Part shown: positions 5,051 to 57,331 of the stretch, piece by piece
How positions within the stretch are numbered: position 1 is the first letter of the stretch
How the letters are laid out: each line of letters opens with the position of its first letter
Virus record (IMG/VR): IMGVR_UViG_3300012000_000002
Location: 32,001-96,000 of that record
DNA: 64,000 bases
Source: a virus
Strand: one strand, 5' to 3'
Position numbers and translations under genes: made by a program
Notes under the pieces: generated by a model
The model's input: only the letters and a program-made list of their open reading frames with translations
Databases searched by the model: none
Told to the model about the DNA's origin: nothing

Positions 5051-6004
5051 TTACAAAGGTAACAAACGCCACCCTCTTGTGCTTGGTGTCTGACCCTTCA
5101 GAAGTTTCCACAAACATTTCATATTCAATCCATGCTCGTTTGCAAAACCAGTCAAACACTCAATCCTTGTGTAAATCGTTCCGTCAGGAGATAACAACTG
5201 GAATCCTTCGTAAACTTTTGCTGAAGTGCTATTCTTTCCCGCATTCTTCCCTTTGCGACTTACAGATATTTTAGCTTTGACTTCATCAGAAAGTGTTTTG
5301 CCCATATTAGCTTTTCTTATTTTTTCTTTCTTTTCTTCAGAACAAGGAACAGAAGTATATCCGTAAACTCCCTTATTCCAAGGAATGCGATCCTTTAAAG
5401 ATTCTCTCATCTTATTGATAGACTCTTCACTCATATGCTTGCCGTAGTTAGGATGATTCACCCCAGACATCTCGGGCATCTTCATGCCCTTATTCCAGCC
5501 AGCAATCTTCTCAATAGTAGGTCGCAACTTCTCAACATATACTGGATCTTGCCATTTTATTTTTGACTCTTCAGATCGTTGTTTGCGTAACTCTGGATTA
5601 TTTTCAAACCGACGCTTATGAGACTCAGACATTCTTCTTCTTGTCTCTTCTGGATTTTTAAAATCGTGACCTTCTGATGAAGTTGCATTCACTCTAAGAT
5701 TATAACATTTTTCTCCAAAGTCATAATATTCTTTAAGATAGTTTTCCTCTATCAAAAGACGCTCTTCTTTAGTCTTTCCTTCTGTAATTTCCAATACCTC
5801 AAACACAAAAGCCTCTTCTCCACACTTGTTAAAATCAGCTTGAAGAAACTTATTTTGGTGCCTTTGATTGCGAAGAGAAGATGTATGTTGTTTCCATCGA
5901 CGTTTAAACTCTTTGGCAGAACCAACATAGATTCTACCATTTAGTTTATTTGTGATCTTATAAATCCCAGATTTAAGTGAATGGCCTTCGTATTTGTATT
6001 CCAT
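5051..6004 (-). CDS. Free-standing GIY-YIG homing endonuclease with NUMOD3-like repeats
   Basis: SGIYKITNKLNGRIYVGSA..RW..H; C-terminal WNKG / SEE.K.K repeats. Confidence 0.9.
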   Translation of the reverse strand: MEYKYEGHSLKSGIYKITNKLNGRIYVGSAKEFKRRWKQHTSSLRNQRHQNKFLQADFNKCGEEAFVFEVLEITEGKTKEERLLIEENYLKEYYDFGEKCYNLRVNATSSEGHDFKNPEETRRRMSESHKRRFENNPELRKQRSEESKIKWQDPVYVEKLRPTIEKIAGWNKGMKMPEMSGVNHPNYGKHMSEESINKMRESLKDRIPWNKGVYGYTSVPCSEEKKEKIRKANMGKTLSDEVKAKISVSRKGKNAGKNSTSAKVYEGFQLLSPDGTIYTRIECLTGFANEHGLNMKCLWKLLKGQTPSTRGWRLLPL

Positions 6005-6051: not shown

Positions 6052-7443
6052 CTAGAGAATCTCAGCAGAAATTGTAGCCAATTGTGACCTTTCACCTTTA
6101 AGGAAGGTAACGTGACCAGAAATCTTTTGTGATTTAAATCTTTCAATTGCGATTGAAAGACCGTTACTTACTGAGTCAACATAAGTGCTATCAATTTGCT
6201 CAAGATCGCCTGTTAGAACAATCTTGGTATTCTCTCCCACACGAGTAAGAATTGTTTTAATCTCGTGTAGGTTGGTGTTTTGAGCTTCATCAACAATGAT
6301 ATAAGCATTAGCAATTGAACGACCACGAATAAACGTCATGGCTTGAACTTCGATAATACCTTCATCGAAATAACTTTGAAGCACTTGTTCGTCAAACTTT
6401 GGCTGTTCCGATATAATCTTCTTTTTTCTTGTGCCTACGTTTGATTCTTTGGGGGGTTCTGAGGCTCCTAAAAGAAAGCGTAGGTTGTCCTTGATCGGAG
6501 CAAGCCAAGGCTCTAGTTTTTCGTTTAAATCGCCGGGAAGGAATCCGATATCTTTTCCTACGGGCATAACTGGACGACAAATAACAAGCGAACGATATTT
6601 GCGTTGGTTCAATACTTGTTCAAGTCCAGCATCGATAGCAAGAAGAGTTTTGCCGCAACCAGATTTACCTGCAAGAGTTACAAGCTTAACTGTATCATCG
6701 AACAAAAGATCACGGGCGAATTCTTGTTCTTTGTTGCGAGGTGAAATCTTGCTTGAGATTTTTCCAAGAGGAAGAACTGGTTCTCCTTTTGTAATAAAAC
6801 GTGCCATTGCAGATTGTTGACCGTTTTTCATGACAACAAACTGATTTGGAAACAATTCGTCTTCAACGTCGCTTGGCAAAAAGAATTGTTCTTCGTTTGA
6901 ATAAAACTGCTTAACGATTACGTCATCACGTTCAATTGTTTTTACTCCAGAGTAAAGACTGTTAACAGATGTTGCAACGTTAAACTTACGATAATCTTCG
7001 CAAGAAATACCAAGTGCTTGAGCTTTTAGACGAAGAATGGTATCTCTTGTAACAAGAACAACTTGTACGTCTGTATGTTTCTCAATGTAGTTTACACAAA
7101 ACTGTGCAATGGTGTTATCACCGCTTTTTTTAGCTTCCATTTCCATTGGAAGTTTATGAGGCACATGTTCTGGAAAGATATCTTCAATTGAAAGAATTCT
7201 TAAAGTTCCTAAATTCTTTCCAAGCGGAATACCTGTTTTGAAATCTTTGTTGATTTTGGTAAGGTCTGCAAGCTTACGAACAACCTCACGGGCATTTCTA
7301 CCAACTTCATCTTGACGATCTTTATGTCTATCGAGTTCTTCTAAAACGATTAAGGGAAGAACAAGATCGTGTTCTTCAAAACCAAACAAACTGTTGCTAT
7401 CTGAAAGTAAAACGTTTGTATCGAGAATATATGTTTTTTTCAT
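6052..7443 (-). CDS. phoH: PhoH-family protein with N-terminal PIN domain (PIN-PhoH)
   Basis: YILDTNVLL PIN motif; Walker A GKSGCGKT; RP; FIRGRS; Walker B IIVDEAQN; GD..Q.D. Confidence 0.92.
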   Translation of the reverse strand: MKKTYILDTNVLLSDSNSLFGFEEHDLVLPLIVLEELDRHKDRQDEVGRNAREVVRKLADLTKINKDFKTGIPLGKNLGTLRILSIEDIFPEHVPHKLPMEMEAKKSGDNTIAQFCVNYIEKHTDVQVVLVTRDTILRLKAQALGISCEDYRKFNVATSVNSLYSGVKTIERDDVIVKQFYSNEEQFFLPSDVEDELFPNQFVVMKNGQQSAMARFITKGEPVLPLGKISSKISPRNKEQEFARDLLFDDTVKLVTLAGKSGCGKTLLAIDAGLEQVLNQRKYRSLVICRPVMPVGKDIGFLPGDLNEKLEPWLAPIKDNLRFLLGASEPPKESNVGTRKKKIISEQPKFDEQVLQSYFDEGIIEVQAMTFIRGRSIANAYIIVDEAQNTNLHEIKTILTRVGENTKIVLTGDLEQIDSTYVDSVSNGLSIAIERFKSQKISGHVTFLKGERSQLATISAEIL

Positions 7444-7528: not shown

Positions 7529-7753
7529 TCACTCGGCTTTTGCTGCCTTTTCGCTCTTGCGAGCTTCATCTCCTGCTAGTGTTGCCTTGATAAGTTCTGC
7601 ACCAAGAGCACGAAGCTTGCGAACGCTCTTACGAACACGAACGCCTGCTGATAGATTGCCCTTAGCTGCATTCTTGTGAACGTCTTCTTCAAGTTGCTCT
7701 ACAAGAAGTTTAAACTCTGCCCATACATCTAATGTTAAACGTGATTCACTCAT
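7529..7753 (-). CDS. Histone H1-like Hc1-family small basic protein
   Basis: KNAAKGNLSAGVRVRKSVRKLR resembles the KGNKAAGTRARK core of bacterial Hc1-like proteins; AGGAG SD; TATATA upstream. Confidence 0.65.
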   Translation of the reverse strand: MSESRLTLDVWAEFKLLVEQLEEDVHKNAAKGNLSAGVRVRKSVRKLRALGAELIKATLAGDEARKSEKAAKAE

Positions 7754-7812: not shown

Positions 7813-8259
7813 TTAACTGCGTTTAGCTAGCTGAAAAAGCAGATTTCCAACAAAAGCAACAACGGACAAAGCCAATGCCCAATAAATGTTTGCTATACGC
7901 TTACGCAGATTTACGAGAGCCGCCAGTTCTTCTAGTTGTTTCCCGGCGATGCTCTCTATCGCCGTTTGAAATTTTTTTAGGTCTTCTACCTCTTCCTTGA
8001 CAGAAGGCAACTCGTCGCACTTCTTGTCTAAATCCTTGATGTTTGTATCAAGTTTGCTTTCAATGACTTTAACACGAGAAAAAAGACCGTTGTTAGGATC
8101 GTATAAAGCTTCAGAAACTTTATCGAGTTTGTGTCCGCTTTTTTCTTGTTCTGTTTGAACGTGTTCGATCATAACACACAATTTTTCAAAACCAGCAGAG
8201 CTGTCACTTGCTTTTTTAAGCAGCAACTCTAACAGTTCTCTCTCACTGCTCGTAGCCAT
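7813..8259 (-). CDS. Coiled-coil protein with C-terminal transmembrane helix
   Basis: Heptad pattern followed by IYWALALSVVAFVGNLLF. Confidence 0.6.
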   Translation of the reverse strand: MATSSERELLELLLKKASDSSAGFEKLCVMIEHVQTEQEKSGHKLDKVSEALYDPNNGLFSRVKVIESKLDTNIKDLDKKCDELPSVKEEVEDLKKFQTAIESIAGKQLEELAALVNLRKRIANIYWALALSVVAFVGNLLFQLAKRS

Positions 8260-8306
8260 TGTTGCACCTCTTCTCTATAAATAGTTCTTAAACAAAGGTA
8301 TTTTTA

Positions 8307-9686
8307 ATGCAACACAACACTTTTATCGAGAAAAATAACACACAAAAAAACTTGGCTTTGTGCCTTGAAAAACTAGAAACAAACTTAGACAAAATATCTT
8401 TGGCTATTTCAACCGAAAACAAAACCTATCTGCAAAAAGATTCATATCAACTTATCGCAAAACTACTAACACCAAAAAACTCTTGGGAACGAATGCTATA
8501 CCAAGAGTTAATCCAAACATGCTATCAACTAGAACTTAAATGCCATAACACAAGCAACTTGTTTCTTCGATCATTTATCTCTCATGCTTATAACCACATA
8601 AAGAATGAAAATCAAACTCATAAGAGTGTTGTGGAACATAACCAAATAGAAGGAAGCAAGTACCTTCAAAACATATTGCAAAAATGTTATCCAGCAAGTC
8701 CAAGTCAAATCGATTGTATAATCAATGAGATAACCAATGACAAACATATGGCGGTAGCGGTTAAAGAAGCAATAAAGCTAGCTGGTATTGAAGGTAACAT
8801 ATTGCTAGAAGAACACGATCAAGCAAACACAATTGTTGAGCTTCAGTTTGGATATAACTTTAAAGTGTATCCGTTCAAAGGGTTTATTCCTCAGTTTGGT
8901 ACTTGGGCAAGAAACAACACAAAGGTTTTACTTGTTGATGGTATGATTGAAAAAGTTTCTGAGCTAGACAAGGTGTTAACAAAAAGCTTTGAAACAAAAA
9001 CACCAATGGTATTGATTGCTCAAGGATTCTCTGAAGAAGTTATTGCTACTCTTCATGCAAACAACAATAGGGGTAGCTTTGATATCATGCCTATCAGGTT
9101 AGAGCAATCGTTGGAAGCGTTAAACATGCTTAACGACATTGCTGTTGTTTCTGGATGTGATGTTGTTTCAACTTTAAAGGGTGAGTTACTTACATATGTT
9201 AACTACGATTCACTCCCAGTTGTGGACAAAGTATCGTTAACCGAAAAAGTTATTACCATTCATAACAACAACACAAGAGGAAATGTTATCGCTCATTTAA
9301 ACTACTTGAGCAATCGTCGTAAAGATCAAGCTGAAGGCGCATCTGTTTCTGACCTTGCAGATCTTACAACAAAACGAATTCAAAACCTTCTTGCTCACAT
9401 TGTTAAGATTAACATTCCAAAGGGGTCAGCAAACCGTTTTAAAGGCCCAATAGACAACGCTATTAGGGCTTGTAGGACTGCCTATACCTATGGCTTTTGC
9501 AAGCCATTAGAAATCGATTTAGAAGGCTTGGCAACGGATTGGAAACAAGCGCACAACCATATGCTTAACAACACAAAAAATAAAGATGTGTCAAGTATTG
9601 GTTTATATCTTGCGGCGATGTATGGAGCAAGTTTAGCTGGAAGTTACTTTACAGCTTCTGGAGCTGTTATATCAGCTACGGAGTAA
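8307..9686 (+). CDS. Divergent GroEL-like chaperonin paralog lacking ATP-binding motifs
   Basis: Intermediate/apical segments align with GroEL (EAIKLAGIEGNILLEE; KVLLVDGMIEKVSEL; PMVLIAQGFSEEVIATLHAN; MLNDIAVVSG). GDGTTT is replaced by CHNTSN. Confidence 0.7.
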   Translation: MQHNTFIEKNNTQKNLALCLEKLETNLDKISLAISTENKTYLQKDSYQLIAKLLTPKNSWERMLYQELIQTCYQLELKCHNTSNLFLRSFISHAYNHIKNENQTHKSVVEHNQIEGSKYLQNILQKCYPASPSQIDCIINEITNDKHMAVAVKEAIKLAGIEGNILLEEHDQANTIVELQFGYNFKVYPFKGFIPQFGTWARNNTKVLLVDGMIEKVSELDKVLTKSFETKTPMVLIAQGFSEEVIATLHANNNRGSFDIMPIRLEQSLEALNMLNDIAVVSGCDVVSTLKGELLTYVNYDSLPVVDKVSLTEKVITIHNNNTRGNVIAHLNYLSNRRKDQAEGASVSDLADLTTKRIQNLLAHIVKINIPKGSANRFKGPIDNAIRACRTAYTYGFCKPLEIDLEGLATDWKQAHNHMLNNTKNKDVSSIGLYLAAMYGASLAGSYFTASGAVISATE

Positions 9687-10315: not shown

Positions 10316-10343
10316 TTGTAAAATCTTATTTGTGTGTTATCCT
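10316..10343 (+). promoter_or_regulatory. Sigma70-type promoter
   Basis: TTGTAA-16-TATCCT with a TGn extension. Confidence 0.45.
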
Positions 10344-10355
10344 AAAGGTATCAAT

Positions 10356-11048
10356 ATGGAGATCAAGCAAAAAAAATCTATATCACTTGAAGAGCTTATT
10401 GAAATGGATAAGCAACGTCAAGCCGAAGAACAAATAAAAGTTCCTTCCAAGGCTAAAACCTTAAAAGAACAAGAACAAAGTTCAAGTGAAGAAAAAGATT
10501 ATCGAGACAAGTATTATTTGCCTGTATTGAACATTAATCAAAATCATGAATGGGAAAGCAAACCAAAGGAAGAACGTAAACATTTTACGGATGAAGTTGC
10601 AGTTGCAACTTGTCTTGGAAACTGTTGTGGTGTGCCGGGTCTAAAAGGTGCATGTTGTCATTTAGATCCGTTAGATTTAGAACACGTACTTGGTCCCGTT
10701 GACGAAGAATGGATCAAGGATATTGTAAAATGGTTTCGAAAAAAGGGAGTAAACTTTTCCAGACAAGACATTGTAATCGATTATGAAGAAGGCGTTGTTA
10801 TTGGTGACACATTGTTTAAGGATGCACCAAACAACGCTGTGTTTAAAGACAAGAAAGCTTATCCTTTTTTGAGGTTTCAAGTTCTTGGACCAAGGTATGT
10901 TTGCAAATTCATGAATCCAACAACTTATAAGTGTACCATATACGAAGCAAGACCTAATATGTGTAGAACATACTATTGCAATTATATTCAAACAAACTTT
11001 CTTGTAAAAACCAAAGATAAGCCAAACACATGGCGAAAAATGAGATAA
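10356..11048 (+). CDS. YkgJ/FliB-like CxxCxxCC Zn/Fe-S-binding protein
   Basis: CLGNCC..GACC..; C.F....KCTIYEARP.MCR.YYC. The start is placed at the ATG at 10356. Confidence 0.75.
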   Translation: MEIKQKKSISLEELIEMDKQRQAEEQIKVPSKAKTLKEQEQSSSEEKDYRDKYYLPVLNINQNHEWESKPKEERKHFTDEVAVATCLGNCCGVPGLKGACCHLDPLDLEHVLGPVDEEWIKDIVKWFRKKGVNFSRQDIVIDYEEGVVIGDTLFKDAPNNAVFKDKKAYPFLRFQVLGPRYVCKFMNPTTYKCTIYEARPNMCRTYYCNYIQTNFLVKTKDKPNTWRKMR

Positions 11049-11060
11049 AGGATAACAAAC

Positions 11061-11546
11061 ATGAAAAACTGGAAAGACGCTGATGGAACCGTTGTTAGTA
11101 ACGATCATATGATTGATTGGGTTAAGCAAAACTGTCCCTTGTACAAACAAGATTATGAATTGATTGTAGGTGTTGATTCACATCTTCACGGCAACCAATA
11201 TAAATTCGTTGCGGTTGTTTGCGTGTATTACAAAGGTCGTGGAGGGTTTTACTACTACACAACCTCGGAACAAAATCGTAGAGAGTTTAAAGGCATATAC
11301 CCAGCAAGAGTAAAAGCTCGTATGTTTCATGAAACAAGTATTGCTATCGAGCTAGCTACCGAGATTCAAGAAAAAACAGGTAAAACTCCAGTTATTCATA
11401 TTGATGCTTCACCACCGAACGCTGGTGAAGTTACAAGCTTGTTTTCCGATCAACTAAAAGGTTATGTGGTTGCTTCTGGTTTTGAAGCAGTGCTTAAGCC
11501 TTGGAGTTTTGTTTCTTCTGGTATTGCAAATAAGCACAGCAAGTAA
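11061..11546 (+). CDS. YkuK-family RNase H-like protein
   Basis: LIVGVDS; GRGG.YY; R...E...; IHIDA; KGYV...GF...LKP.SF.SS.IANKH. Confidence 0.8.
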   Translation: MKNWKDADGTVVSNDHMIDWVKQNCPLYKQDYELIVGVDSHLHGNQYKFVAVVCVYYKGRGGFYYYTTSEQNRREFKGIYPARVKARMFHETSIAIELATEIQEKTGKTPVIHIDASPPNAGEVTSLFSDQLKGYVVASGFEAVLKPWSFVSSGIANKHSK

Positions 11547-11919: not shown

Positions 11920-11961
11920 TAGCTGGTTTGTTGTTAACAATTATAACAGTGCTTGTACGCT

Positions 11962-12420
11962 ATGCTTGAATCAATCAAACATCTAATAACTTGCAACTGT
12001 GTTTTGCGTCAATATCAAGAAGTCGAACCAACAGTTTTTCATCAGTTTGTTGTGTTTTCTGTTATCAATCAAGACGGCAGCATTAAACCGTCATATGCGA
12101 AATGTAACAACTGCGGTGCTATTCACAAAGTAACCGAAGTTAATGTTTCAGAACGCTTGAAAAAAGAAGACAGCCCATTGGTACCAGACGTAGAAGAAAT
12201 AAAATCAACGTTGCCAAAAAAGCTTGTTAGCTTGCTAGCAAAATACGATTTAGCACTACCAACTTGGCAAGAAATCAAATTCAATCACGAAAATCAAAAA
12301 TGGGATCGTCCTGTGATTTTATATCGTGAAAAACAAGGCGAAGAATACCAAGGGAAATATCTTCTTATGGCAGGTAAAACTCTTTGGAAGATTGAATCGT
12401 TTTCAACGGAGGAACTATGA
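11962..12420 (+). CDS. Hypothetical protein with Cys pairs (CxC, CxxC)
   Basis: ITCNC and KCNNCG suggest a Zn ribbon. Confidence 0.6.
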   Translation: MLESIKHLITCNCVLRQYQEVEPTVFHQFVVFSVINQDGSIKPSYAKCNNCGAIHKVTEVNVSERLKKEDSPLVPDVEEIKSTLPKKLVSLLAKYDLALPTWQEIKFNHENQKWDRPVILYREKQGEEYQGKYLLMAGKTLWKIESFSTEEL

Positions 12421-30943: not shown

Positions 30944-30992
30944 GTTTTATTCTCCGTATATCAAACGTTAACGATAAATAGAAGAATAAAAA

Positions 30993-31057: not shown

Positions 31058-34000
31058 TCAGATAGAAACTCCGCTTGGAAGAACAACGAAATCCATTACG
31101 ATGTATTCGATTGCTCTTGTTGGAAGCACTCTAATTTGAGCATTCATACGGTTGCTGTTAACGTCTTCAGCAGTATTGTTACGATCATCACAGATAATCG
31201 CAAACTGTTCAATACCTTGTTGGGCTTGAACTGTTGCAAGTACCAATGCTGCTTCGTTAACAAAACGTGTGCGAAGTGCTGGTGTGTTTTGTTCGAAGAG
31301 CAAACGGTTACCGATTGCAACAATTTGACGCTTGATTTCTAGTAACATTCTTTTAACGTTAATAGATTCCAAAGCACTTTCTGCTTGTTGCAATGTGTTT
31401 TGTGAGAAGAACACATAGTTGGCACCGGGGAACTTCACGATTGGGTTAATGTTGGCATCGTAAAGTGTGTTGCGATCATTTTGGTTTATTCTTATTGAAG
31501 TAAGAAGTACGAAACCAAGAGAACCACGATCAAATCCTGCTGGAGCAAACCAAGGGAACTTAACACGGTCGTTATAGCTCAATGCTGAAAGAGCAGCAAT
31601 AGAAGCTGGGAGTTGTACACGGCGAGTGTTAACAGTGTCTTCGATAACGATGTTGGGGAAGTATGCTGCACCACCGTTGTTATCCAATGCACGGTTTATA
31701 AACGCATTTGATGTTTTGTTGATGGAGATTGATCGATTTGATTCACCATCAAAGATACGAACATCGTCTTTGTCGTATGGTTGAAGGTCTAGAAGATAAA
31801 AACTCAAACCGTAATCTGTGTTTTTCTCTAGTGCGTAGTTTGTGATAAGTGGATCACGTTGACCGGGCGTTGCAAGAATGTTGTTGTTTGCAAGGCTTGG
31901 GTTGGTTGCAATATCAAGTGCTGTGCGATAAGCAACAACGTTTTGGTTAGAAGCACCAACGCCAGTATAGTTGGTTGCTGATGGAGCACCGGGAGATACA
32001 TAGCTTGCATTAGCAAGACCATATACACCACCAGCACCAGCTTCTGTAGATGTTGATTGATCTGTAAAGCGAGCAGCTTGTTTGTCAAAGATGTTTACAC
32101 CATCCCAGCCACCTTGCATAAAGGTTGTGAATTTAGCGTAGTTAGAGAAGTTGTTAAACTGAACTGCGCTGCTGCTGTTAACCAACGAAGCAAAAGTAAT
32201 ACGGTTGCTGTAGTTTGTTGCAACGTATGTTGTTGGATCGATTGTTGCGTTACGAAGATATGCAGCAGACTTCATAAGTGTTAGAATATCTGTTGAAGCT
32301 ACCGTTGTCATTGAAGTTTCGTTTAGCGCAACATTTGCAAGGGTGAACTTGTTGTTGTTCAAAAGATCGCTTGCTGAACCAGTTGTAAGCACACCTAGTT
32401 TTTCAATGCCAGCAAATTTAGAAAAGTTTGCAACAATTGGGTTAATCGCTGCATTAACGTTAACGTTTAGAACGTCATTGTTGTTTCGTTCTAGTTTAAC
32501 GCCCCAATACAATCTTCCGTCTACAACTGTTTGAGCACCGGGAGCACCAAACACTGTACCAGAAGCAGTTAGTGGGTTGCGTGTAACTGTAAATCGATAT
32601 GGAACAGGTGGAACAATTGATCCAGATAGCAAAGCACCATTTGGAACTGTGCTTGAAGATACACCACTTATTCTTGCAAGTGTTGGCAAACCACCTTGAT
32701 CGCTCAAAGCTACGTTTGTCAAAAGCATTTGGTGACCACGGAAACCGAATGGAAGAGCTAGTTCTGGCACTTCGTCGTTTTCAAGTTGTGAGCTTGGAAC
32801 CACACGAATAAATCTGCTGCGATTACCGTATTTTCCTTCAACTACAACACCACGGTCTTCTGCTTCAACTTGATCAAAATCAAACTTGGTGCGTTTATCA
32901 CCAATAACTCTTGCAATATATTGGCTGCTTTTTGGATCAAGTGATAGGTTGTTAAATTGTTCTAGAATTTGTGGTTGTTCGTCGGTGTCATTGAACGCTC
33001 TAACAGACAAAGTAAATGAACCATATTTTGATGATGGATTTGTTGATGCCAACAAGTTTGAAATGCTGATTTTATACTTGCTGTTTGCATATTCACCGTC
33101 ATCACGGCTTTCTACATAAAATAGATCATACTCGATTCCACCAAAAGGTTGTGAAACAAAGTATGGAGTTTTTGGTGCTGTATAACGTGTGTTAAAGTAA
33201 CCAAATACTTCACTGTATTCAAGACCAAGTGAGTTTGTGTTGGCAGATCCAGAAAGAACCGCAACGGTTGGAACAGTGTTGCTAGCGGAAAGAGTTGCAA
33301 CTTGTGCATCTACAGCATAATCAAGATAAAGAAGATGTTTTTTTGTTGCAAAGTTTTCTGGGTTTGTGTTTAAGATTTTTCCAACGTATTGATCTGAGTC
33401 TGGATCGAATGATGCTGAGAAGATTTGAAGACCTGCAACACCATCATCGGAAGAAAATGAAGAACCAGCAGAGCAAGAAAGAACTAGTTTAAACATTCCT
33501 TGCATTGGTCCAGTTGTACCAACTTGTGCTGCTTCGTATGTGCCGCTTCCTCCAAATGCAGCAGTTGGATCATAAACACCACCAGAATCTACTGCACCAC
33601 TTAAAACAAGAAAGCGTGAATCCGGTGCAGTGAATAGAACAGCACGAACAAGATTTACACTATCATTGTCTGGTGTAAAGCCGCTAACGTTATAGCTGTT
33701 GTTGTTGGTAAACATTGGATATCCAAACACTTCGTTGTTTTGTACAAAGTGCTTACCAACCAAGAATTGTACACGGCCTTGCAACGCACCAGAAACGAAT
33801 ACTGTTCCGTTACCGACAACTTGCATACCGGCGTTTGTAACAGTGCCGCTAACTTGTGTTTGTGTTATATCAATTGAACTACTATTGGCACCACAACCAA
33901 GAACACGAATGTAGTTAACTGAAGCTAGCTCAGTGCCTTTTGCTTCTAGAAATTTTTGTACACCATATGTACCAACATATTTCGAGTTTACTGGTCCAAA

Positions 34001-34168: not shown

Positions 34169-34248
34169 ATTTATCCTCACTTTACAGTTAGTTAAAGTTC
34201 TACGGCATAAATAGAGACAAGAAACCGGTTTACCTTAAAGAACCAAAG

Positions 34249-42095: not shown

Positions 42096-44048
42096 TCAGA
42101 TGATGGACATATCGAGGCAGGTCACGGTGGCGTAGAAGTCTGCACGAACCATCTTCTTCCCGTAGCGGGTCATGATGCCCTTACGTGGGGTGAAGTCCTC
42201 TTGTCCGTAGATTACGGGGGTGAGGATAAGTGGAACGTATGGAGCGTAGATATAGCCGCTTTCAAGGAAGCTTGAACCCTTAAGACCGATAAGGATCTTG
42301 TTTACTGGGAAGTATGGGTCAACGAATACTGAGTAGCGACCGTTTACTGTACCGACTGCTTCTGCACCAATGCTCATGTTGTCACGAACTTGGCCGTCTG
42401 AGTCGATTTTGTAGTTGGCACGGTAAGCAACTGTTGCTTCAAGGATTGTGCCCACTTCTGGTGAGCAGACGATGAAGTTACCTGAGCCACGGAGGGTCTT
42501 CTTGTGGATGACGTTGGCTGCGTCTGTGATGGTTTCGATAAGTGTTTCGTACCATTCACGGACTGTGCCGGTGAATTGTGGACCGGGGTAAACGGTGTTG
42601 GTACGAGCAACTTCGGTGCCTGTGTATTTGTTGACGAAGCGACCGGGGGCACGGCTCCAGTAGTAGTTAGCTGCTTGAGCTTGTGTGAGGAGGTCGTTGA
42701 GAATTTCACGGTCGATATCCAATGTGATCATTTCAGAAAGGATATTTGTGAGATTTGCTTCTACGTCGATTGAGTAGAATGCTGTAAGGTCTTGAGCCAG
42801 TTCTGGTGACCAGCGAGCACGTAGCTTGCGGGTTGTGGCTGTTACAGCTACTGAATCGATTTTGATGTCAACGTCTGGGATGCGTGGTGATGCATCAACA
42901 GCGAAGTTTGATTCAAAGCTTGGAATTGTCAATGTTGAACCATCAGCATTGACTGAGAGGGAGTCAGCAATTGGAATAGAAGCTGTGATTTGTGTTGATG
43001 CGTTGCCAAGATAAACGGAGCTAACGCTTTGTGCGTTTGCAAGACCGAGAGCAACAAGGATGTGTGAACCGCCGAATGGATCTGGTGTGAATGTTGAGCT
43101 TGTGCCAGCATCGGTCCAGTTACCACGCTTGGTGAAGCGACGGAAGTTAAGAACGCCTTCGCCTGCTTGGTAGGTTAGTGGAGGTGCTGTGAAGCTTGAG
43201 CCTGACAAACCAAGACCAACAACTGCGAGTTGTTCAAGTGATGTAAGGTCTGCACCATTGATTGCGTTTGTTACTTGTGAAGCTGAGAACACCAAGAAGG
43301 TATAGTCGAGCACATTGCTTTCAACGTCTGCTGCAAGAAGTGGATCATAATCAGTGAAGCGTGCGTTGTAACCAACGTTTGCTGATGCTGAAGCAACTGA
43401 TGATTGTGATAGCCATGTTGTGCCTTGATACCATGTACCGAGAGCAACTACGCCTGTTGCAAGTTTGGATTCTGAGTGAACCTTTGAGTAACCAGAACCG
43501 ATAAGGTTGTATTGACCACCGGCAGCGAGTGAACCGCTGGTACGGATCAATGAACCGGATGGGTTGGTGTATACTGATTGACCACGGGCATATGTTGCTG
43601 CGCCGGGATCGGTACCAGTTGCAAATTGGTTAGCTGCTGTACCTGCATCACCACCGACGTATGAGCCGTAGGTGTAATCTAAGTAGAAGAGTAGACCTGA
43701 TGGAAGGCTCATTGGTTGAACGCTGACGATTTCGTTAGCAACGAGGCCAGCGAACACACGACGAACGATTGGGAATGCTACGTTTGTAAACCCAGCAACT
43801 TGTCCAGAGGATGCAAGTGATGCACCACCTGTTGAAAGTGAAAGGCTTTCATTGAGCATTGATGAGCCGCCCTTAAGAACTTCTACTGCTTGGTTTTCAA
43901 GGAGGCGAGCCATCTTTTGCTTGCCAGTATCTGAAAGACCTTCTAGAAGACCTGTGCGTGACCACTTGCCTACAATGCGGTCATCGCCATTTGCTGCGGT
44001 ACGTTGAATACCTTCAGCTAGTTGTGAGAGTGTTAGTGTACGTGACAT
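42096..44048 (-). CDS. Major capsid protein (T4 gp23-like)
   Basis: KW..TGLLEG; LLENQ; FP.VRRVF..L.A.EIVSVQPM..PSGL.FYLD; V.A.TRKLRA.WSPE.AQDL; E.....EIDREI; YAPYVPL; G.MTRY. Confidence 0.95.
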   Translation of the reverse strand: MSRTLTLSQLAEGIQRTAANGDDRIVGKWSRTGLLEGLSDTGKQKMARLLENQAVEVLKGGSSMLNESLSLSTGGASLASSGQVAGFTNVAFPIVRRVFAGLVANEIVSVQPMSLPSGLLFYLDYTYGSYVGGDAGTAANQFATGTDPGAATYARGQSVYTNPSGSLIRTSGSLAAGGQYNLIGSGYSKVHSESKLATGVVALGTWYQGTTWLSQSSVASASANVGYNARFTDYDPLLAADVESNVLDYTFLVFSASQVTNAINGADLTSLEQLAVVGLGLSGSSFTAPPLTYQAGEGVLNFRRFTKRGNWTDAGTSSTFTPDPFGGSHILVALGLANAQSVSSVYLGNASTQITASIPIADSLSVNADGSTLTIPSFESNFAVDASPRIPDVDIKIDSVAVTATTRKLRARWSPELAQDLTAFYSIDVEANLTNILSEMITLDIDREILNDLLTQAQAANYYWSRAPGRFVNKYTGTEVARTNTVYPGPQFTGTVREWYETLIETITDAANVIHKKTLRGSGNFIVCSPEVGTILEATVAYRANYKIDSDGQVRDNMSIGAEAVGTVNGRYSVFVDPYFPVNKILIGLKGSSFLESGYIYAPYVPLILTPVIYGQEDFTPRKGIMTRYGKKMVRADFYATVTCLDMSII

Positions 44049-52655: not shown

Positions 52656-52928
52656 ATGGGAAGAAAACAACAAGTTGAACCAGACGAGATGCCGGAAAAT
52701 CTCGCTGAACTTAAACCGATTGTTAACGAGTTTGTTGACAGAATGAGAACTCTTGAAAACGAAGAAGTAACTCTTCGTGAAGCAAAGAAAGAACTCGTTG
52801 ATGAATACGCTTCAAAGCTTGACACAAAAACTTTAAAACTTGCTTTGCGGTTGGTTGATCTCAAAAAGAAAGTGCAACACAAGCACTACTTCGACCTTTT
52901 CCTTGAGATTCTTTCCGATGACCAATGA
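52656..52928 (+). CDS. GapR/DUF2312 (T4 DsbA-like) small DNA-binding protein
   Basis: LKPIVNEFVDRMRTLENEE..LREAKKELVDEY...LD.KTLKLALRL matches the family pattern. Confidence 0.55.
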   Translation: MGRKQQVEPDEMPENLAELKPIVNEFVDRMRTLENEEVTLREAKKELVDEYASKLDTKTLKLALRLVDLKKKVQHKHYFDLFLEILSDDQ

Positions 52929-53815
52929 TACTTATTGGTATGGCATATACCGTTTATCGAATCAAAAGAAAAACAGTCGAAGATAATCGCTCATATATCG
53001 GTGTCACGGGTGTAGAGTTAACAACTCGCCTCTCAAGACATAAGCATGGAAACAACAAAAAACTTGTCGCATGGTTAAAAAAGTATTGGGACGATATCAT
53101 AATCGAATCGATAGCTTTTTTTACTTCTTTGGAAGATGCGCTGTCTTTGGAAAAAACGCTAGTGCCAGCCAAACAAGAAGAACGTGATAAACTAGGTTTA
53201 TTAAATCTAACAGAGGGTGGTGGATCGCCGGGACATTGGGATAATCTATCTTCTGAACAACAAAAGATTAGAAAGACAATATTGTCAGAAAAGCTAAAAG
53301 GAAAAAAAAGATCAGCAGAACAAAAAAAGAGAATGTCAGAAGCTCATAAAGGCAAAAAACAAACACAAGACCAAATAACGAAAAGAATGCAAAGTTACGT
53401 AAAATCCGAAAAACTAAACAGACAAATAATGTTGATATCTCCTGCTGGGGTGAGCGTAACAGAAAAAAATCCAGCGATATTCGCAAAAAAATACAACTTA
53501 GACGATTCTTTGCTGCGTAGGCTTTTAAAGAAAAAGGTTCGCCACTATCAAAACTGGAGTCTTAATGGTGTCCCAGTTTATATTGTTTGTGCGCCTAATG
53601 GAGAAAAGTATGCGTTTTGCAACAAGAGCAAATTTGCTAAAACGCATAACTTGTCACAGGTTGGCATCAGTCATCTTGTAACCAAACGTATACAATCCCA
53701 CTGTGGATGGACTCTTATAAAAGTATCTAGCAACATTATTTTATACGATTCCGATCCAGAGCATTATAAAATATTCCAGAAATATCTGAAAACAGAAGAA
53801 AGAGATGAACCATGA
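52925..53815 (+). CDS. GIY-YIG homing endonuclease with NUMOD-like repeats
   Basis: YTVYRI...SYIGVT...R...H; N...GG; SEAHKGK; two similar C-terminal modules; ATGA overlaps at both ends. Confidence 0.8.
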   Translation: MILIGMAYTVYRIKRKTVEDNRSYIGVTGVELTTRLSRHKHGNNKKLVAWLKKYWDDIIIESIAFFTSLEDALSLEKTLVPAKQEERDKLGLLNLTEGGGSPGHWDNLSSEQQKIRKTILSEKLKGKKRSAEQKKRMSEAHKGKKQTQDQITKRMQSYVKSEKLNRQIMLISPAGVSVTEKNPAIFAKKYNLDDSLLRRLLKKKVRHYQNWSLNGVPVYIVCAPNGEKYAFCNKSKFAKTHNLSQVGISHLVTKRIQSHCGWTLIKVSSNIILYDSDPEHYKIFQKYLKTEERDEP

Positions 53816-54300
53816 GCACAGCAAAGCAAAATCGTAAACTAGACTTTATTCCAGAGATTCTTTATGAATCACCAAGTTATCCCGGTGAAAAAGTTTCTCC
53901 AATTCCTTATATGGTTATTCCAAAAGACAAGGATATGCCTGTAGGATTGTTTCTTATGCGTTATACACAAACAGGTGAATACGAAGTTGGTGATTCTGGA
54001 AAGCCAGAAGAAATCATGGATGGACCACATCCTCATATGTTTGTTGACTTTAAACACGTTGAAGCTGTTCTTCATGAATCTTTCCCCAATCTTCATATGG
54101 GAGATGCTGTTGACAAGATTCGTGTTGGTTTAGGTCTTAAGCCTCTTGCCAAAGCTCGCAAAGATGGTAATGATCTTCTAGAACGTGTTGTCGCTAAAGC
54201 AAATGACATTGCTAGCGTTGCTTTTGAAAAACAACAAGAACGTAAAGCACAATATGAAAATCAACTACAAAAGGATATTGCGGAGGATCAAAAACAATGA
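53812..54300 (+). CDS. Hypothetical protein
   Basis: Coupled operon gene. Confidence 0.7.
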   Translation: MSTAKQNRKLDFIPEILYESPSYPGEKVSPIPYMVIPKDKDMPVGLFLMRYTQTGEYEVGDSGKPEEIMDGPHPHMFVDFKHVEAVLHESFPNLHMGDAVDKIRVGLGLKPLAKARKDGNDLLERVVAKANDIASVAFEKQQERKAQYENQLQKDIAEDQKQ

Positions 54301-54704
54301 AGTTTCATGCCAGTGTTATTGAAGACATTATTTTGAATTGTAGAAACTTTGGTGGTCATGCATCAGAACGTAAACTTCGTGAGGTTCTTGGAGCCAAACG
54401 TTATGCAATTTACGTTGGTGATAGAAGAGATATGGTATTGGTTGATGCTGAACGTTATATGAAAGAAGCATTTCAACGTGGACAATCAACAAATCAAATT
54501 GTACCAATGACTCTTCATCCAAAAGCATTTGAAAAAATCATGTATTTTTTCGATTTGTATTCTGGATATGATACCGAAGCCAAGCTAAGACAGTCTTTGG
54601 TTAGTATGGATTTTACTCCATACGAACGTAAGCTTGGAGGAAGTCACGATACCATTCTTGTTCTTACGGAAGATTATACTAAGGCATTACAAGGATCACC
54701 ATGA
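54297..54704 (+). CDS. Hypothetical protein
   Basis: Coupled operon gene. Confidence 0.7.
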   Translation: MKFHASVIEDIILNCRNFGGHASERKLREVLGAKRYAIYVGDRRDMVLVDAERYMKEAFQRGQSTNQIVPMTLHPKAFEKIMYFFDLYSGYDTEAKLRQSLVSMDFTPYERKLGGSHDTILVLTEDYTKALQGSP

Positions 54705-55237
54705 GCTTTGCAATCGGACAAGTGATTTATGTTCTTAGCGACAAAACGCAAACTGTTTTGCCGGGAATCGTTCAAGAAGAAATTCATCACCGAACCATTG
54801 ATGGAGAAAAAGTTTCTTATCGTGTTGCTATCGGTCCACCAAACAAACAACGTGTTGTAGACCTTGCAACCGTTGATGGTGAAGTATATGGAAATCTAGA
54901 CGAAATCCGAAACGTTTTAATCGCTCGTCTTACTGCGTTTGTTGACGATCTTTGTAACACAACAAACGAAAGAGTTAATCAATGGTATCACGCTAATACT
55001 AGAACGCAAACAACAACTACAAACAATGGAAAACTTGATCCGGCAGCTTTAATGAACGAAGTAGCTCCTACTAATGGAACAAACGTATATCAAACGCAAC
55101 AAAAACCATTGGTAAATGGAATCGTTAATGGATTAAATGGTTTGAGAACGGCTTTAGCCGATCCAGACCTAAACACTCGTGAATTCATCGACGCTGACGG
55201 AACAATCCGCAAAATTTCAATCAACATACCACAGTGA
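54701..55237 (+). CDS. Hypothetical protein
   Basis: Coupled operon gene. Confidence 0.7.
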   Translation: MSFAIGQVIYVLSDKTQTVLPGIVQEEIHHRTIDGEKVSYRVAIGPPNKQRVVDLATVDGEVYGNLDEIRNVLIARLTAFVDDLCNTTNERVNQWYHANTRTQTTTTNNGKLDPAALMNEVAPTNGTNVYQTQQKPLVNGIVNGLNGLRTALADPDLNTREFIDADGTIRKISINIPQ

Positions 55238-56964
55238 AACATATGAACAAAAACGTTGAAAACGATTCGAATAGCCAAGAAGTTACATTTGGTCAAGATG
55301 CACACGAACAGCTTTTAGCTGGTGCCGCAATACTTTATAAAGCTGTTAAAAGCACAATGGGTCCAAGTGGTCATAACGTTATTATCGATAACGGACAAAC
55401 AGCACCGTTGATTACAAAAGACGGTGTAACTGTTGCAAAGAGTATTAATCTCAAAGCTAAACTTCCAAGCTTGGGTGCTGAACTTATAAAAGAAGTAGCT
55501 AGCAAAACAAACGAACTTGCTGGTGATGGTACCACCACTGCTACCGTTCTTGGCTATGCCATGCTTCAGCAAGGTATTAAAATGACTGCCACAGGACGTT
55601 CTGCAATTGAAATCAAACGTGGAATGGAATGGGCAACAAATAAAGTTATTGATTGGTTAAAGCAACACGCTATATCAATTCGTAACAACGAAGATATCGT
55701 TAACATTGGAACCATTTCTGCTAACGGAGACAGATCGATTGGTGAACTTCTTTGTGATGCAATCTCGAAAGTAGGACAAGACGGTATCATCACAATCGAA
55801 CCAGCGAAAAGCGTTAAGACAACATTAGACGTTGTTGAAGGTATGCAGTTTGATTCTGGTTTTGTTAGTCCTTATTTCGTAACAAACCAAGAAAAGATGT
55901 CAGCAGAGTTAACCGATCCTTACATCTTAATCACCAACAAAAAGATATCTTCGCTTCAAGAAATTCTTCCTGTGTTGGAACTTGCAGCCAACGCCAGCAA
56001 GCCTCTTTTAATCATTGGTGATGAAATTGAAGGTGAAGCTCTTCACACAATGATTGTTAACAAGATGAAAGGAGTTCTTTTCACTTGTGCAGTCAAAGCT
56101 CCAAGTTACGGTGAAAATCGTACAGATATTCTTTCTGATATTGCTCTTGTAACTGGCGGCAAAGTTTTTGATGCTAGTTCAGAAAAGCAAATCAAGAATG
56201 CTGTACTTTCTGATCTTGGAAAATGCAAACGAGCTATTATCACCAAAGGATCAACAACTCTTGTAGGTGATGATACAAGCCGTAAAGATCTTATTGCTGA
56301 ACGTGTTGAACAACTAAGAAATCTTCTTTTGGCTAATGTTGGAATCGATGATCTTAAACGTGAAAACACAAAAAAGCGTCTTGCCAAACTTGCTGGAGGT
56401 ATCGCCGTTATCAAAGTTGGTGGAAGTACAGAAGTTGAAATCTTTGAAAAGAAAGATCGTGTTGAAGACGCTTTAAATGCCACCATAGCGGCTGTTCAAG
56501 AAGGAATCCTTCCCGGTGGTGGTACAGCTCTTTTCTACGCCTCAGAATGGCTGCAAAGAGAAATGCAAAGCACTTCTGAATTCACAGAAGATGAACTAGC
56601 TGGAGTAAAGGTTATATACGAAGCTTGTCGTCAACCTTTAAGAGTTATTGTGGAAAACACAGGTAAGAGTGCTGATGTTGTAATGAACGAACTACGTTCA
56701 TATGACAATAAAAAGCTTGTTAGCTTTCTTCATGATCTTGCTGGAGATACAAACCGTCCAGAAGAATTAGTTGAAAAGAAAGCAGAGATACTATTAAGCA
56801 AACGTTTACGTCAAGGATATGATGCAAGTCGTCATACGTATTGCGACTTGATTGAACATGGTGTAATCGATCCTCTTAAAGTTGAACGTTATGCTATTGA
56901 ACATGCTTGTTCGGTGGTTGGGTTGTTGCTTACCACAAACTGTGTTGTAGTTGTAGAAAATTGA
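55234..56964 (+). CDS. groEL: Chaperonin GroEL
   Basis: TMGP.G.NV; ITKDGVTVAK; AGDGTTTAT; EGMQFD.G; KAP.YG; RLAKLAGG; RVEDAL.AT.AA..EG..PGGG; GVIDP. Confidence 0.95.
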   Translation: MKHMNKNVENDSNSQEVTFGQDAHEQLLAGAAILYKAVKSTMGPSGHNVIIDNGQTAPLITKDGVTVAKSINLKAKLPSLGAELIKEVASKTNELAGDGTTTATVLGYAMLQQGIKMTATGRSAIEIKRGMEWATNKVIDWLKQHAISIRNNEDIVNIGTISANGDRSIGELLCDAISKVGQDGIITIEPAKSVKTTLDVVEGMQFDSGFVSPYFVTNQEKMSAELTDPYILITNKKISSLQEILPVLELAANASKPLLIIGDEIEGEALHTMIVNKMKGVLFTCAVKAPSYGENRTDILSDIALVTGGKVFDASSEKQIKNAVLSDLGKCKRAIITKGSTTLVGDDTSRKDLIAERVEQLRNLLLANVGIDDLKRENTKKRLAKLAGGIAVIKVGGSTEVEIFEKKDRVEDALNATIAAVQEGILPGGGTALFYASEWLQREMQSTSEFTEDELAGVKVIYEACRQPLRVIVENTGKSADVVMNELRSYDNKKLVSFLHDLAGDTNRPEELVEKKAEILLSKRLRQGYDASRHTYCDLIEHGVIDPLKVERYAIEHACSVVGLLLTTNCVVVVEN

Positions 56965-56977
56965 AAGGAATGATATC

Positions 56978-57331
56978 ATGGCTAAAGGAGATCATGTTAG
57001 AGTAGGTCACGGCAGTACAGTTCATGGAATCGCACCAGACAACGTACCCGTTTATGAACTTGAAAAAGATGAATGGGGAAATGTTCGCTGCGATATCAAT
57101 GGATGTGCATTTCCAAGACCTGTTGGTGGAGTAAAAGGAGGTTCAGCAGCTACAATTGCTGGTGACCCCATTAAAGTCCAACGTGGATATGTTGAACGTA
57201 TGAGCGAAAGCACTAAATCATTTGGTGGTGCTGACTTTGTAATGCTGTTTCCTGTTTATTTCACTCACTATCAAAAAACAGCATACATTCAAGCCAATCA
57301 TATGCATTTAACTCATGGACAACTTACCTAA
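56978..57331 (+). CDS. Hypothetical protein downstream of GroEL
   Basis: 117 aa, AAGGA SD; no GroES motifs recognised. Confidence 0.65.
   Translation: MAKGDHVRVGHGSTVHGIAPDNVPVYELEKDEWGNVRCDINGCAFPRPVGGVKGGSAATIAGDPIKVQRGYVERMSESTKSFGGADFVMLFPVYFTHYQKTAYIQANHMHLTHGQLT

Follow-up and report, generated by a model that had tools for sequence, protein, structure and literature searches.

Chaperonins are the textbook example of folding machines driven by adenosine triphosphate (ATP). Jumbo phages encode GroEL homologues of their own, some of which are active without a co-chaperonin (PMC7185714; PMC9598537). Chlamydial GroEL2 and GroEL3 are extra group I paralogues that stand beside GroEL1 and have diverged ATP- and GroES-binding regions (PMC1892554), and BBS6 and BBS12, whose ATP-hydrolysis motif is degenerate, are believed not to fold clients themselves but to pass a specific one on to the active chaperonin CCT (PMC5534436). 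Here we describe a phage protein that takes such divergence further. It is encoded in a stretch of 64,000 nucleotides (positions 32,001 to 96,000 of the IMG/VR virus record IMGVR_UViG_3300012000_000002), which we call the window and whose own numbering we use throughout. An uninterrupted open reading frame on the plus strand, 8307..9686, encodes 459 amino acids plus a stop codon, in agreement with an earlier model-made annotation of this DNA (hereafter the original prediction). We refer to the product, a GroEL-fold protein that appears to lack the ATP site, as mini-GroEL.

We propose that mini-GroEL is an ATP-independent binding chaperone or adaptor that uses its apical domain on particular phage proteins, likely together with a conserved neighbour and ahead of the canonical GroEL that the phage also encodes, and we give this reading a probability of about one half. 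Mini-GroEL would derive from a group I chaperonin subunit and be functional though nucleotide-free; its apical domain would bind one or a few phage proteins without ATP, as a holdase or an adaptor. It would probably work with the coiled-coil protein of 148 amino acids encoded next to it, and its clients would probably be handed to, or processed ahead of, the ATP-driven phage GroEL.

A Pfam search with the 459-residue protein returned no family at E ≤ 1, and its score against PF00118 is well under the gathering score. The protein matched GroEL among PDB sequences in a phmmer search (E = 1e-11, residues 138-396) and PHROG 5725, 'chaperonin groEL', with E = 4e-22, while a profile of 51 homologues found GroEL chains in the PDB with E = 1e-33 over GroEL residues 54-414. 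An AlphaFold2 model built from the alignment of these 51 homologues has a predicted local distance difference test score (pLDDT) of 85.9. Foldseek matched the model to GroEL/Hsp60 chains only (best E = 3e-23, template modelling score 0.75), and VIA-align superposed 452 of the 459 residues (span 2-459) on GroEL/Hsp60 with Z 27.4. The apical part of the model (182-363) falls on isolated Cpn60/GroEL apical domains with Z 23.6 and a root-mean-square deviation of 1.9 Å. On this model, mini-GroEL has the full three-domain GroEL fold, with equatorial, intermediate and apical domains. The kinship with GroEL that the original prediction had proposed exceeds chance by a wide margin and is matched by both structural comparisons, and the intermediate and apical segments that it regarded as GroEL-like can be aligned by hhalign and superposed in the model. 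The domains follow each other on the plus strand as an N-terminal equatorial segment with a degenerate nucleotide pocket (8307..8687, residues 1-127), a first intermediate segment (8688..8849, residues 128-181, aligned by hhalign to E. coli 134-190), the apical domain (8850..9392, residues 182-362), which is the best conserved part, a second intermediate segment in which D398 is replaced (9393..9497, residues 363-397), and a shortened C-terminal equatorial remnant (9498..9683, residues 398-459).

The mini-GroEL family was aligned globally by hhalign (probability 99.8%) with 12 canonical GroELs, namely that of E. coli, that of the same phage (55234-56964) and ten from related phages, and the pocket columns were tabulated in the query and 261 family members, with residue roles taken from GroEL crystal structures. 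All tabulated pocket residues are invariant or nearly so in the 12 canonical GroELs. In mini-GroEL the phosphate loop of E. coli GroEL (T30-K34, TLGP) is deleted, ITKDG becomes L-QKDS with K51 and D52 only partly kept (as K44 and D45), and G86-T91 (GDGTTT) is paired with HNTSNL, so that T89-91 are lost; the D87 column holds Gly or Asn across the family, with Asp in just 9 of the 261 members. VEDAL becomes IDNAI, and the catalytic D398 is N384 in the query and Asn, Ile, Val or Thr across the 261 members. G414-G416 are replaced by PLE, with GGG in no member of the 261; D495 is V428 in the query and Val, Ile or Leu across the family; and the N479-A481 pocket element of GroEL is replaced in the query and in its 261 relatives. 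Several of these changes had been read by eye in the original prediction. The alignment gives the same result for ITKDG, VEDAL and GGG, and for GDGTTT it upholds the loss of the motif but moves the exact pairing by one residue (HNTSNL instead of CHNTSN), which leaves the conclusion unchanged. The list of altered motifs was incomplete rather than overstated, as the T30-K34 deletion, the change of D495 to Val and a loss of about 53 C-terminal residues were absent from it. Judging from these columns, mini-GroEL should be unable to bind or hydrolyse ATP in the manner of GroEL, and the core of the original prediction, a pseudo-ATPase accompanied by an intact phage GroEL, finds support and holds across a whole family.

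The heptameric rings of GroEL stack back to back via the equatorial contacts E434, R452, E461, S463 and V464. Three stretches of the E. coli protein (419-447, 455-461 and 463-477) have no counterpart in mini-GroEL, and they include E434, E461, S463 and V464. The C-terminal equatorial half has lost about 53 residues; counted from a conserved Gly (G410 in E. coli GroEL), a median of 61 residues follow in the family where the E. coli protein has 138. The back-to-back ring interface thus appears to be absent from mini-GroEL. The allosteric bridge between subunits is lost as well, with R197 deleted and E386 changed to Ala, Ser or Pro. Within a GroEL ring, adjacent subunits are knit together by the N- and C-terminal strands and a stem-loop hairpin. 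These elements are kept in the monomer model of mini-GroEL (N-terminal strand 2-8, hairpin 33-42, C-terminal strand 452-458), which makes ring formation plausible and suggests that the protein may still assemble into rings, most likely single rather than stacked.

A pointer to function is the distribution of constraint along the protein. Column entropy in the family is lowest in the apical domain (1.57 bits, compared with 2.4-2.7 in the equatorial parts). We then compared mean pairwise identity, domain by domain, for the mini-GroELs and canonical GroELs of the same 11 genomes. Canonical GroEL reaches 55% in the N-terminal equatorial part, 65% in the intermediate domain, 50% in the apical domain and 48% in the C-terminal equatorial part; the corresponding values for mini-GroEL are 21%, 28%, 41% and 23%. 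The conservation pattern is therefore inverted with respect to canonical GroEL, with the apical domain the best conserved in mini-GroEL. The original prediction had offered three mechanisms (a non-catalytic subunit of mixed rings, an ATP-independent holdase and a hijacker of host GroEL), and given that the apical domain is the most constrained, an ATP-independent holdase or binder fits best, while the data weigh mildly against the other two. The isolated apical domain of GroEL has ATP-independent chaperone activity in vitro, which supports the idea of a passive binder. Clients and GroES share one hydrophobic groove in GroEL, to which apical helices H and I contribute L234, L237, L259, V263 and V264. 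Some hydrophobic positions are kept in mini-GroEL (L237 as L224, L259 as I/V246, F204 as Phe or Met), the V264 column holds Ala, Thr or Val across the family, and others are polarised, L234 being Asp in 45 of 51 members (D221) and V263 being Lys, His or Tyr. The apical motifs conserved in the family are DG.IEKVSELDKIL, GFSEEVIATL..N and LN.LNDIAVV. The functional surface of mini-GroEL is probably the apical domain, with a narrower specificity than that of GroEL.

The size of the family speaks against a gene in decay. A word-indexed search recovered 118 homologues with 25-89% identity to the query, nearly all of 440-490 amino acids, and when HMMER was run exhaustively, 724 clusters (at 50% identity) matched with E ≤ 1e-30. 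Proteins in the best 150 of these all measure 243-509 amino acids, with no fused forms among them. Members share a length of 430-490 amino acids, the GroEL fold and the lack of nucleotide motifs, a description that the query fits, and 14 columns of the family alignment are invariant. No member was found in 50,697 GenBank phage records, where only canonical GroELs with at most 27% identity occur, in 185,579 genomes of prokaryotic species scanned by motif, or in BFVD; the neighbours of mini-GroEL in the ESM Atlas are virus clusters. The family is hence large and old, and known only in virus and metagenome DNA. Among six close homologues the ratio of nonsynonymous to synonymous substitution rates (dN/dS) is 0.09-0.20, an approximate figure as dS is high, and mini-GroEL is under strong purifying selection that is concentrated on the apical domain. 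A decaying or non-functional duplicate of the phage GroEL could account for the loss of all catalytic motifs and for the missing PF00118 match, but the frame is intact, the model is confident, columns have stayed invariant and hundreds of diverged full-length homologues keep a constant length. Together with the dN/dS values this rules out a pseudogene, and we regard the chance of decay as negligible; the homologues display conservation, not the pseudogene-like decay that would have told against the original prediction. As for the origin of the gene, the family profile scores 120 bits against Thermus GroEL and 99 bits against E. coli GroEL, compared with 59-85 bits against the co-resident phage GroELs. 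As the profile favours bacterial GroELs over the companion, mini-GroEL does not look like a recent copy of the latter, and an origin by recent duplication of the co-resident GroEL is unsupported by these scores.

The window is part of an IMG/VR virus record of 119 kb. CheckV puts the completeness of this record at about 35%, so that the whole phage genome would measure roughly 340 kb. The canonical phage GroEL (55234..56964, plus strand, 576 amino acids; PF00118, E = 2e-63) has all nucleotide-site residues. It ends at the position of E. coli residue ~526 and is otherwise motif-complete; the absence of a GGM tail was correctly noted before. The role of an ATP-dependent phage chaperonin, of full length and with an intact ATPase site, falls to this gene and not to mini-GroEL. 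Among related IMG/VR records with a completeness of 45% or more, 9 of 10 carry a motif-complete GroEL beside mini-GroEL, which is the co-occurrence that the original prediction had proposed to check. IMG/VR was also scanned for canonical GroEL, where an alignment-based query gave matches and a single sequence gave none. The reverse does not hold: 14 records that carry GroEL but fall outside the clade have the canonical GroEL only and no mini-GroEL, and among them are a complete genome of 319.5 kb and others with 81%, 68% and 66% completeness. Co-occurrence is therefore one-way, in that sufficiently complete relatives with mini-GroEL nearly all carry GroEL and the converse fails. Mini-GroEL is a core gene of a single clade of uncultured T4-like jumbo phages.

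This co-occurrence is also what would be expected if mini-GroEL were a non-catalytic subunit of hetero-heptamers with the phage GroEL, where it could tune cavity size, allostery or client range. Hetero-oligomeric chaperonins are well established elsewhere, in CCT and in the chloroplast Cpn60 alpha/beta system, and the terminal strands and the stem-loop hairpin needed within a ring are predicted to be retained. Against such mixed rings, the equatorial segments are the least conserved parts of mini-GroEL (21-23% identity, compared with 48-55% in the co-resident GroELs of the 11 genomes), and about 53 equatorial residues and the R197/E386 bridge between subunits are missing. Moreover, 46 kb separate the two genes, each of which has a conserved block of its own, and the profile scores (99 bits for E. 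coli GroEL, 59-85 for the phage GroELs) do not point to a recent, co-adapted tandem duplicate. We consider mixed rings possible but rather doubtful.

Another question regards what, if anything, closes the chamber of the phage GroEL. The original prediction had seen no GroES, and indeed Pfam Cpn10 has no match anywhere in the 119-kb record, which is only about 35% complete, nor in 4 of 5 near-complete relatives, although proteins of the T4 gp31 type escape this model. The major capsid protein (42096..44048, minus strand, 650 amino acids) is T4 gp23-like (PF07068, E = 5e-64), has its closest relatives in uncultured huge phages and distantly T4-like phages, and is a candidate chaperonin client. 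The Pfam Gp23 model matches this protein in two pieces (1-88 and 122-356) with about 630 nucleotides of coding sequence between them, which indicates a large insertion domain relative to T4 gp23. A nucleotide-free ring of mini-GroEL could dock on the phage GroEL in the place of GroES or gp31 and enlarge the chamber for a capsid protein of 650 amino acids. The missing Cpn10, the size and gp23-like nature of the capsid protein and the absence of a cavity-filling GGM tail in the phage GroEL would suit such a cap, and T4 gp23 requires GroEL and a phage co-chaperonin, as cited in PMC5649160. The cap is nonetheless unlikely: the idea is purely inferential, no mobile-loop-like element was identified in mini-GroEL, one relative carries Cpn10 and mini-GroEL together, a gp31-type protein would evade the Cpn10 model, and some phage GroELs function without any co-chaperonin (PMC7185714). 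A broader version, in which mini-GroEL and the phage GroEL form a two-component viral chaperonin, is a speculative possibility to which we give modest weight. Here a nucleotide-free, GroEL-derived ring would serve as client adaptor or lid for the phage GroEL, possibly tethered or loaded by the 148-residue neighbour, and would help to fold or assemble the gp23-like capsid protein without a GroES-type co-chaperonin.

Alternatively, the target could be the host. Phages are known to retarget host GroEL, as T4 does with gp31, and the GroEL-like ring-forming elements of the model might let mini-GroEL insert into host rings or cap them, redirecting or blocking host folding. The precedent is a general one, though. 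The interfaces of host GroEL are highly conserved, yet the equatorial parts of mini-GroEL evolve fastest; these phages bring a complete GroEL of their own; and there is no signal of host-specific matching. A poison or hijacker of host GroEL is accordingly improbable, and the ATP-independent binder remains the reading that we prefer.

Several points weigh against that binder too. A non-canonical nucleotide site may exist; D383 (the E397 column), one position before the lost D398, is kept in 244 of 261 members. The polarised groove (Asp for L234 in 45 of 51 members; Lys, His or Tyr for V263) means that promiscuous hydrophobic binding of the GroEL type is not assured. One relative that is 61% complete has mini-GroEL without GroEL, the two genes sit in separate conserved blocks, and since the carriers form one syntenic clade, co-occurrence with GroEL and with the 148-residue neighbour may reflect just shared descent. 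Finally, whatever is said here on oligomeric state, client, timing of expression and any contact with GroEL or the neighbour is inference.

The neighbourhood of mini-GroEL is itself conserved. The block runs from a PIN-PhoH fusion through an Hc1-like protein and the 148-residue protein to mini-GroEL, with proteins of 155 and 105 amino acids farther downstream. The PIN-PhoH gene (6052-7443, minus strand; PF13638 and PF02562) is conserved in 39 of 43 related loci and the gene for the histone-H1-like Hc1 protein of 74 amino acids (7529-7753, minus strand; PF07432, E = 4e-8) in 29 of 43. Directly upstream of mini-GroEL in 35 of 42 related loci, according to a profile search, lies the gene for the 148-residue protein (7813..8259, minus strand), divergent from mini-GroEL in close relatives and co-directional in distant ones. 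Its product combines a variable coiled coil with a hydrophobic helix at the C-terminus; P55 and G58 are invariant, and LNGGFD and LYDPDNGL stand out as conserved motifs. Pfam, PHROG and a PDB profile search gave no informative match for it beyond coiled-coil noise, and a Prefoldin_2 match (E = 0.098) was not trusted. On the other side, a Cys-rich protein of 238 amino acids and of no known family (10332-11048, plus strand) and an RNaseH-like protein (11061-11546, plus strand; PF04308, E = 5e-24), each in 21 of 43 loci, sit between mini-GroEL and the Cys-rich protein of 155 amino acids (11953..12420, plus strand), which lacks a family match, is present in 38 of 43 loci and lies nearer to mini-GroEL in distant ones. 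A GIY-YIG-like open reading frame of homing-endonuclease type (5051-6004, minus strand) precedes the block and has homologues in just 7 of 43 related loci; a second one (52925-53815, plus strand), just upstream of the GroEL block, has homologues in 0 of 11 GroEL loci. Both look like mobile insertions.

The divergent spacer between mini-GroEL and the 148-residue gene measures 47 nucleotides (8260..8306) and contains an A/T box, CTATAAATAG, at 8274-8283, which is conserved in relatives between variable flanks. Read in the sense of the gene, CTATTTA(T) is the most enriched hexamer class in the non-coding upstream regions of the window (TATTTA occurs 7 times against 0.4 expected). Copies stand at 30974-30980, 34207-34213, 8277-8283 and in other upstream regions; for two large genes on the minus strand and for the 148-residue gene, the copy lies 18-31 nucleotides ahead of the start codon. 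We consider this sequence a candidate promoter element of the phage. In the opposite sense, TATAAATA at 8276-8283 resembles a T4-type late promoter for mini-GroEL and is conserved in relatives. This candidate was rejected: with just two exact copies in the window, the octamer is no commoner than expected by chance, it is absent at the capsid gene, and the motif that is enriched runs the other way, as CTATTTA(T), its reverse complement, and would act for the divergent 148-residue gene.

The canonical GroEL has a conserved block of its own, with proteins of 162, 135 and 178 amino acids, GroEL and a protein of 117 amino acids in this order (53812-57331 in the window; conserved in 8 of 11 relatives). 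The last of these (56978..57331, plus strand) is predicted to be a small beta-barrel protein, lies directly 3' of GroEL and adjoins it in 8 of 11 relatives. Its model (pLDDT 80; conserved motif GGVK.GS.G.I.G.P) matches SH3/KOW-like barrels only (Foldseek E ≥ 0.14, VIA Z ≤ 7.1); neither Pfam nor PHROG gave a match, and no Cpn10 or gp31 is found among the matches listed. It is a candidate accessory protein of GroEL. In a related phage (contig IMGVR_UViG_3300020577_008610, 2808-5699), the canonical GroEL is an open frame of 964 amino acids, with an in-frame insert of about 400 amino acids between Pfam Cpn60 positions 62 and 63 that carries Hom_end and LAGLIDADG_3 domains; judging by these domains, the insert looks like an intein.

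Literature searches led to work on the ATP-dependent chaperonins of phages EL, OBP and AR9 and to surveys of GroEL and GroES in viruses, none of which describes a phage paralog without a nucleotide site (PMC5649160; PMC7824862; PMC7185714; PMC9598537). This agrees with the earlier impression that the system is undescribed, yet some members of the family have been labelled 'chaperonin GroEL' automatically, a label that overstates their capability. What this window adds is a pair of neighbours that stay together, a dependence on GroEL that runs one way, an inversion of domain constraint measured in matched genomes and the T4-like capsid context. A virus-only family that keeps the fold and the apical domain, apparently without ATP site or ring-ring interface, amounts to a natural experiment on a GroEL without its motor and offers a compact, testable model of a passive holdase or adaptor. 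The folding of very large capsid proteins in distantly T4-like jumbo phages might be explained by it as well.

Compared with E. coli GroEL (PDB 1AON/1KP8; PF00118), mini-GroEL has the same three-domain order from N- to C-terminus, an apical domain that superposes to 1.9 Å and homology over 54-414. It differs in what appears to be missing, namely the ATP pocket, D398, GGG, the ring-ring contacts and the GGM tail, and in its shortened C-terminal equatorial half. The chaperonins of Pseudomonas phages EL (gp146) and OBP (gp246) and of Bacillus phage AR9 (gp228) are likewise GroEL homologues of jumbo phages, and the best structural match of mini-GroEL in BFVD is AR9 GroEL. These are, however, full-length ATP-dependent proteins of 511-609 amino acids, whose equivalent here is the gene at 55234-56964. 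The apical domain of GroEL folds stably by itself, as the 'minichaperone' (PDB 1KID, 1FY9) demonstrates; this minichaperone is a fragment made in the laboratory, whereas mini-GroEL keeps the intermediate and a reduced equatorial domain. Chlamydial GroEL2 and GroEL3 differ in being full-length, cellular and non-viral, with a loss of motifs that is partial and not complete. The closest functional analogy is perhaps with BBS6/MKKS, BBS10 and BBS12, which are also diverged chaperonin paralogues. They are eukaryotic group II proteins derived from CCT8, marked by insertions and not deletions, and homology is at the level of the superfamily only. By analogy, mini-GroEL may nonetheless be the counterpart, among prokaryotic viruses, of the relation between BBS6/BBS12 and CCT.

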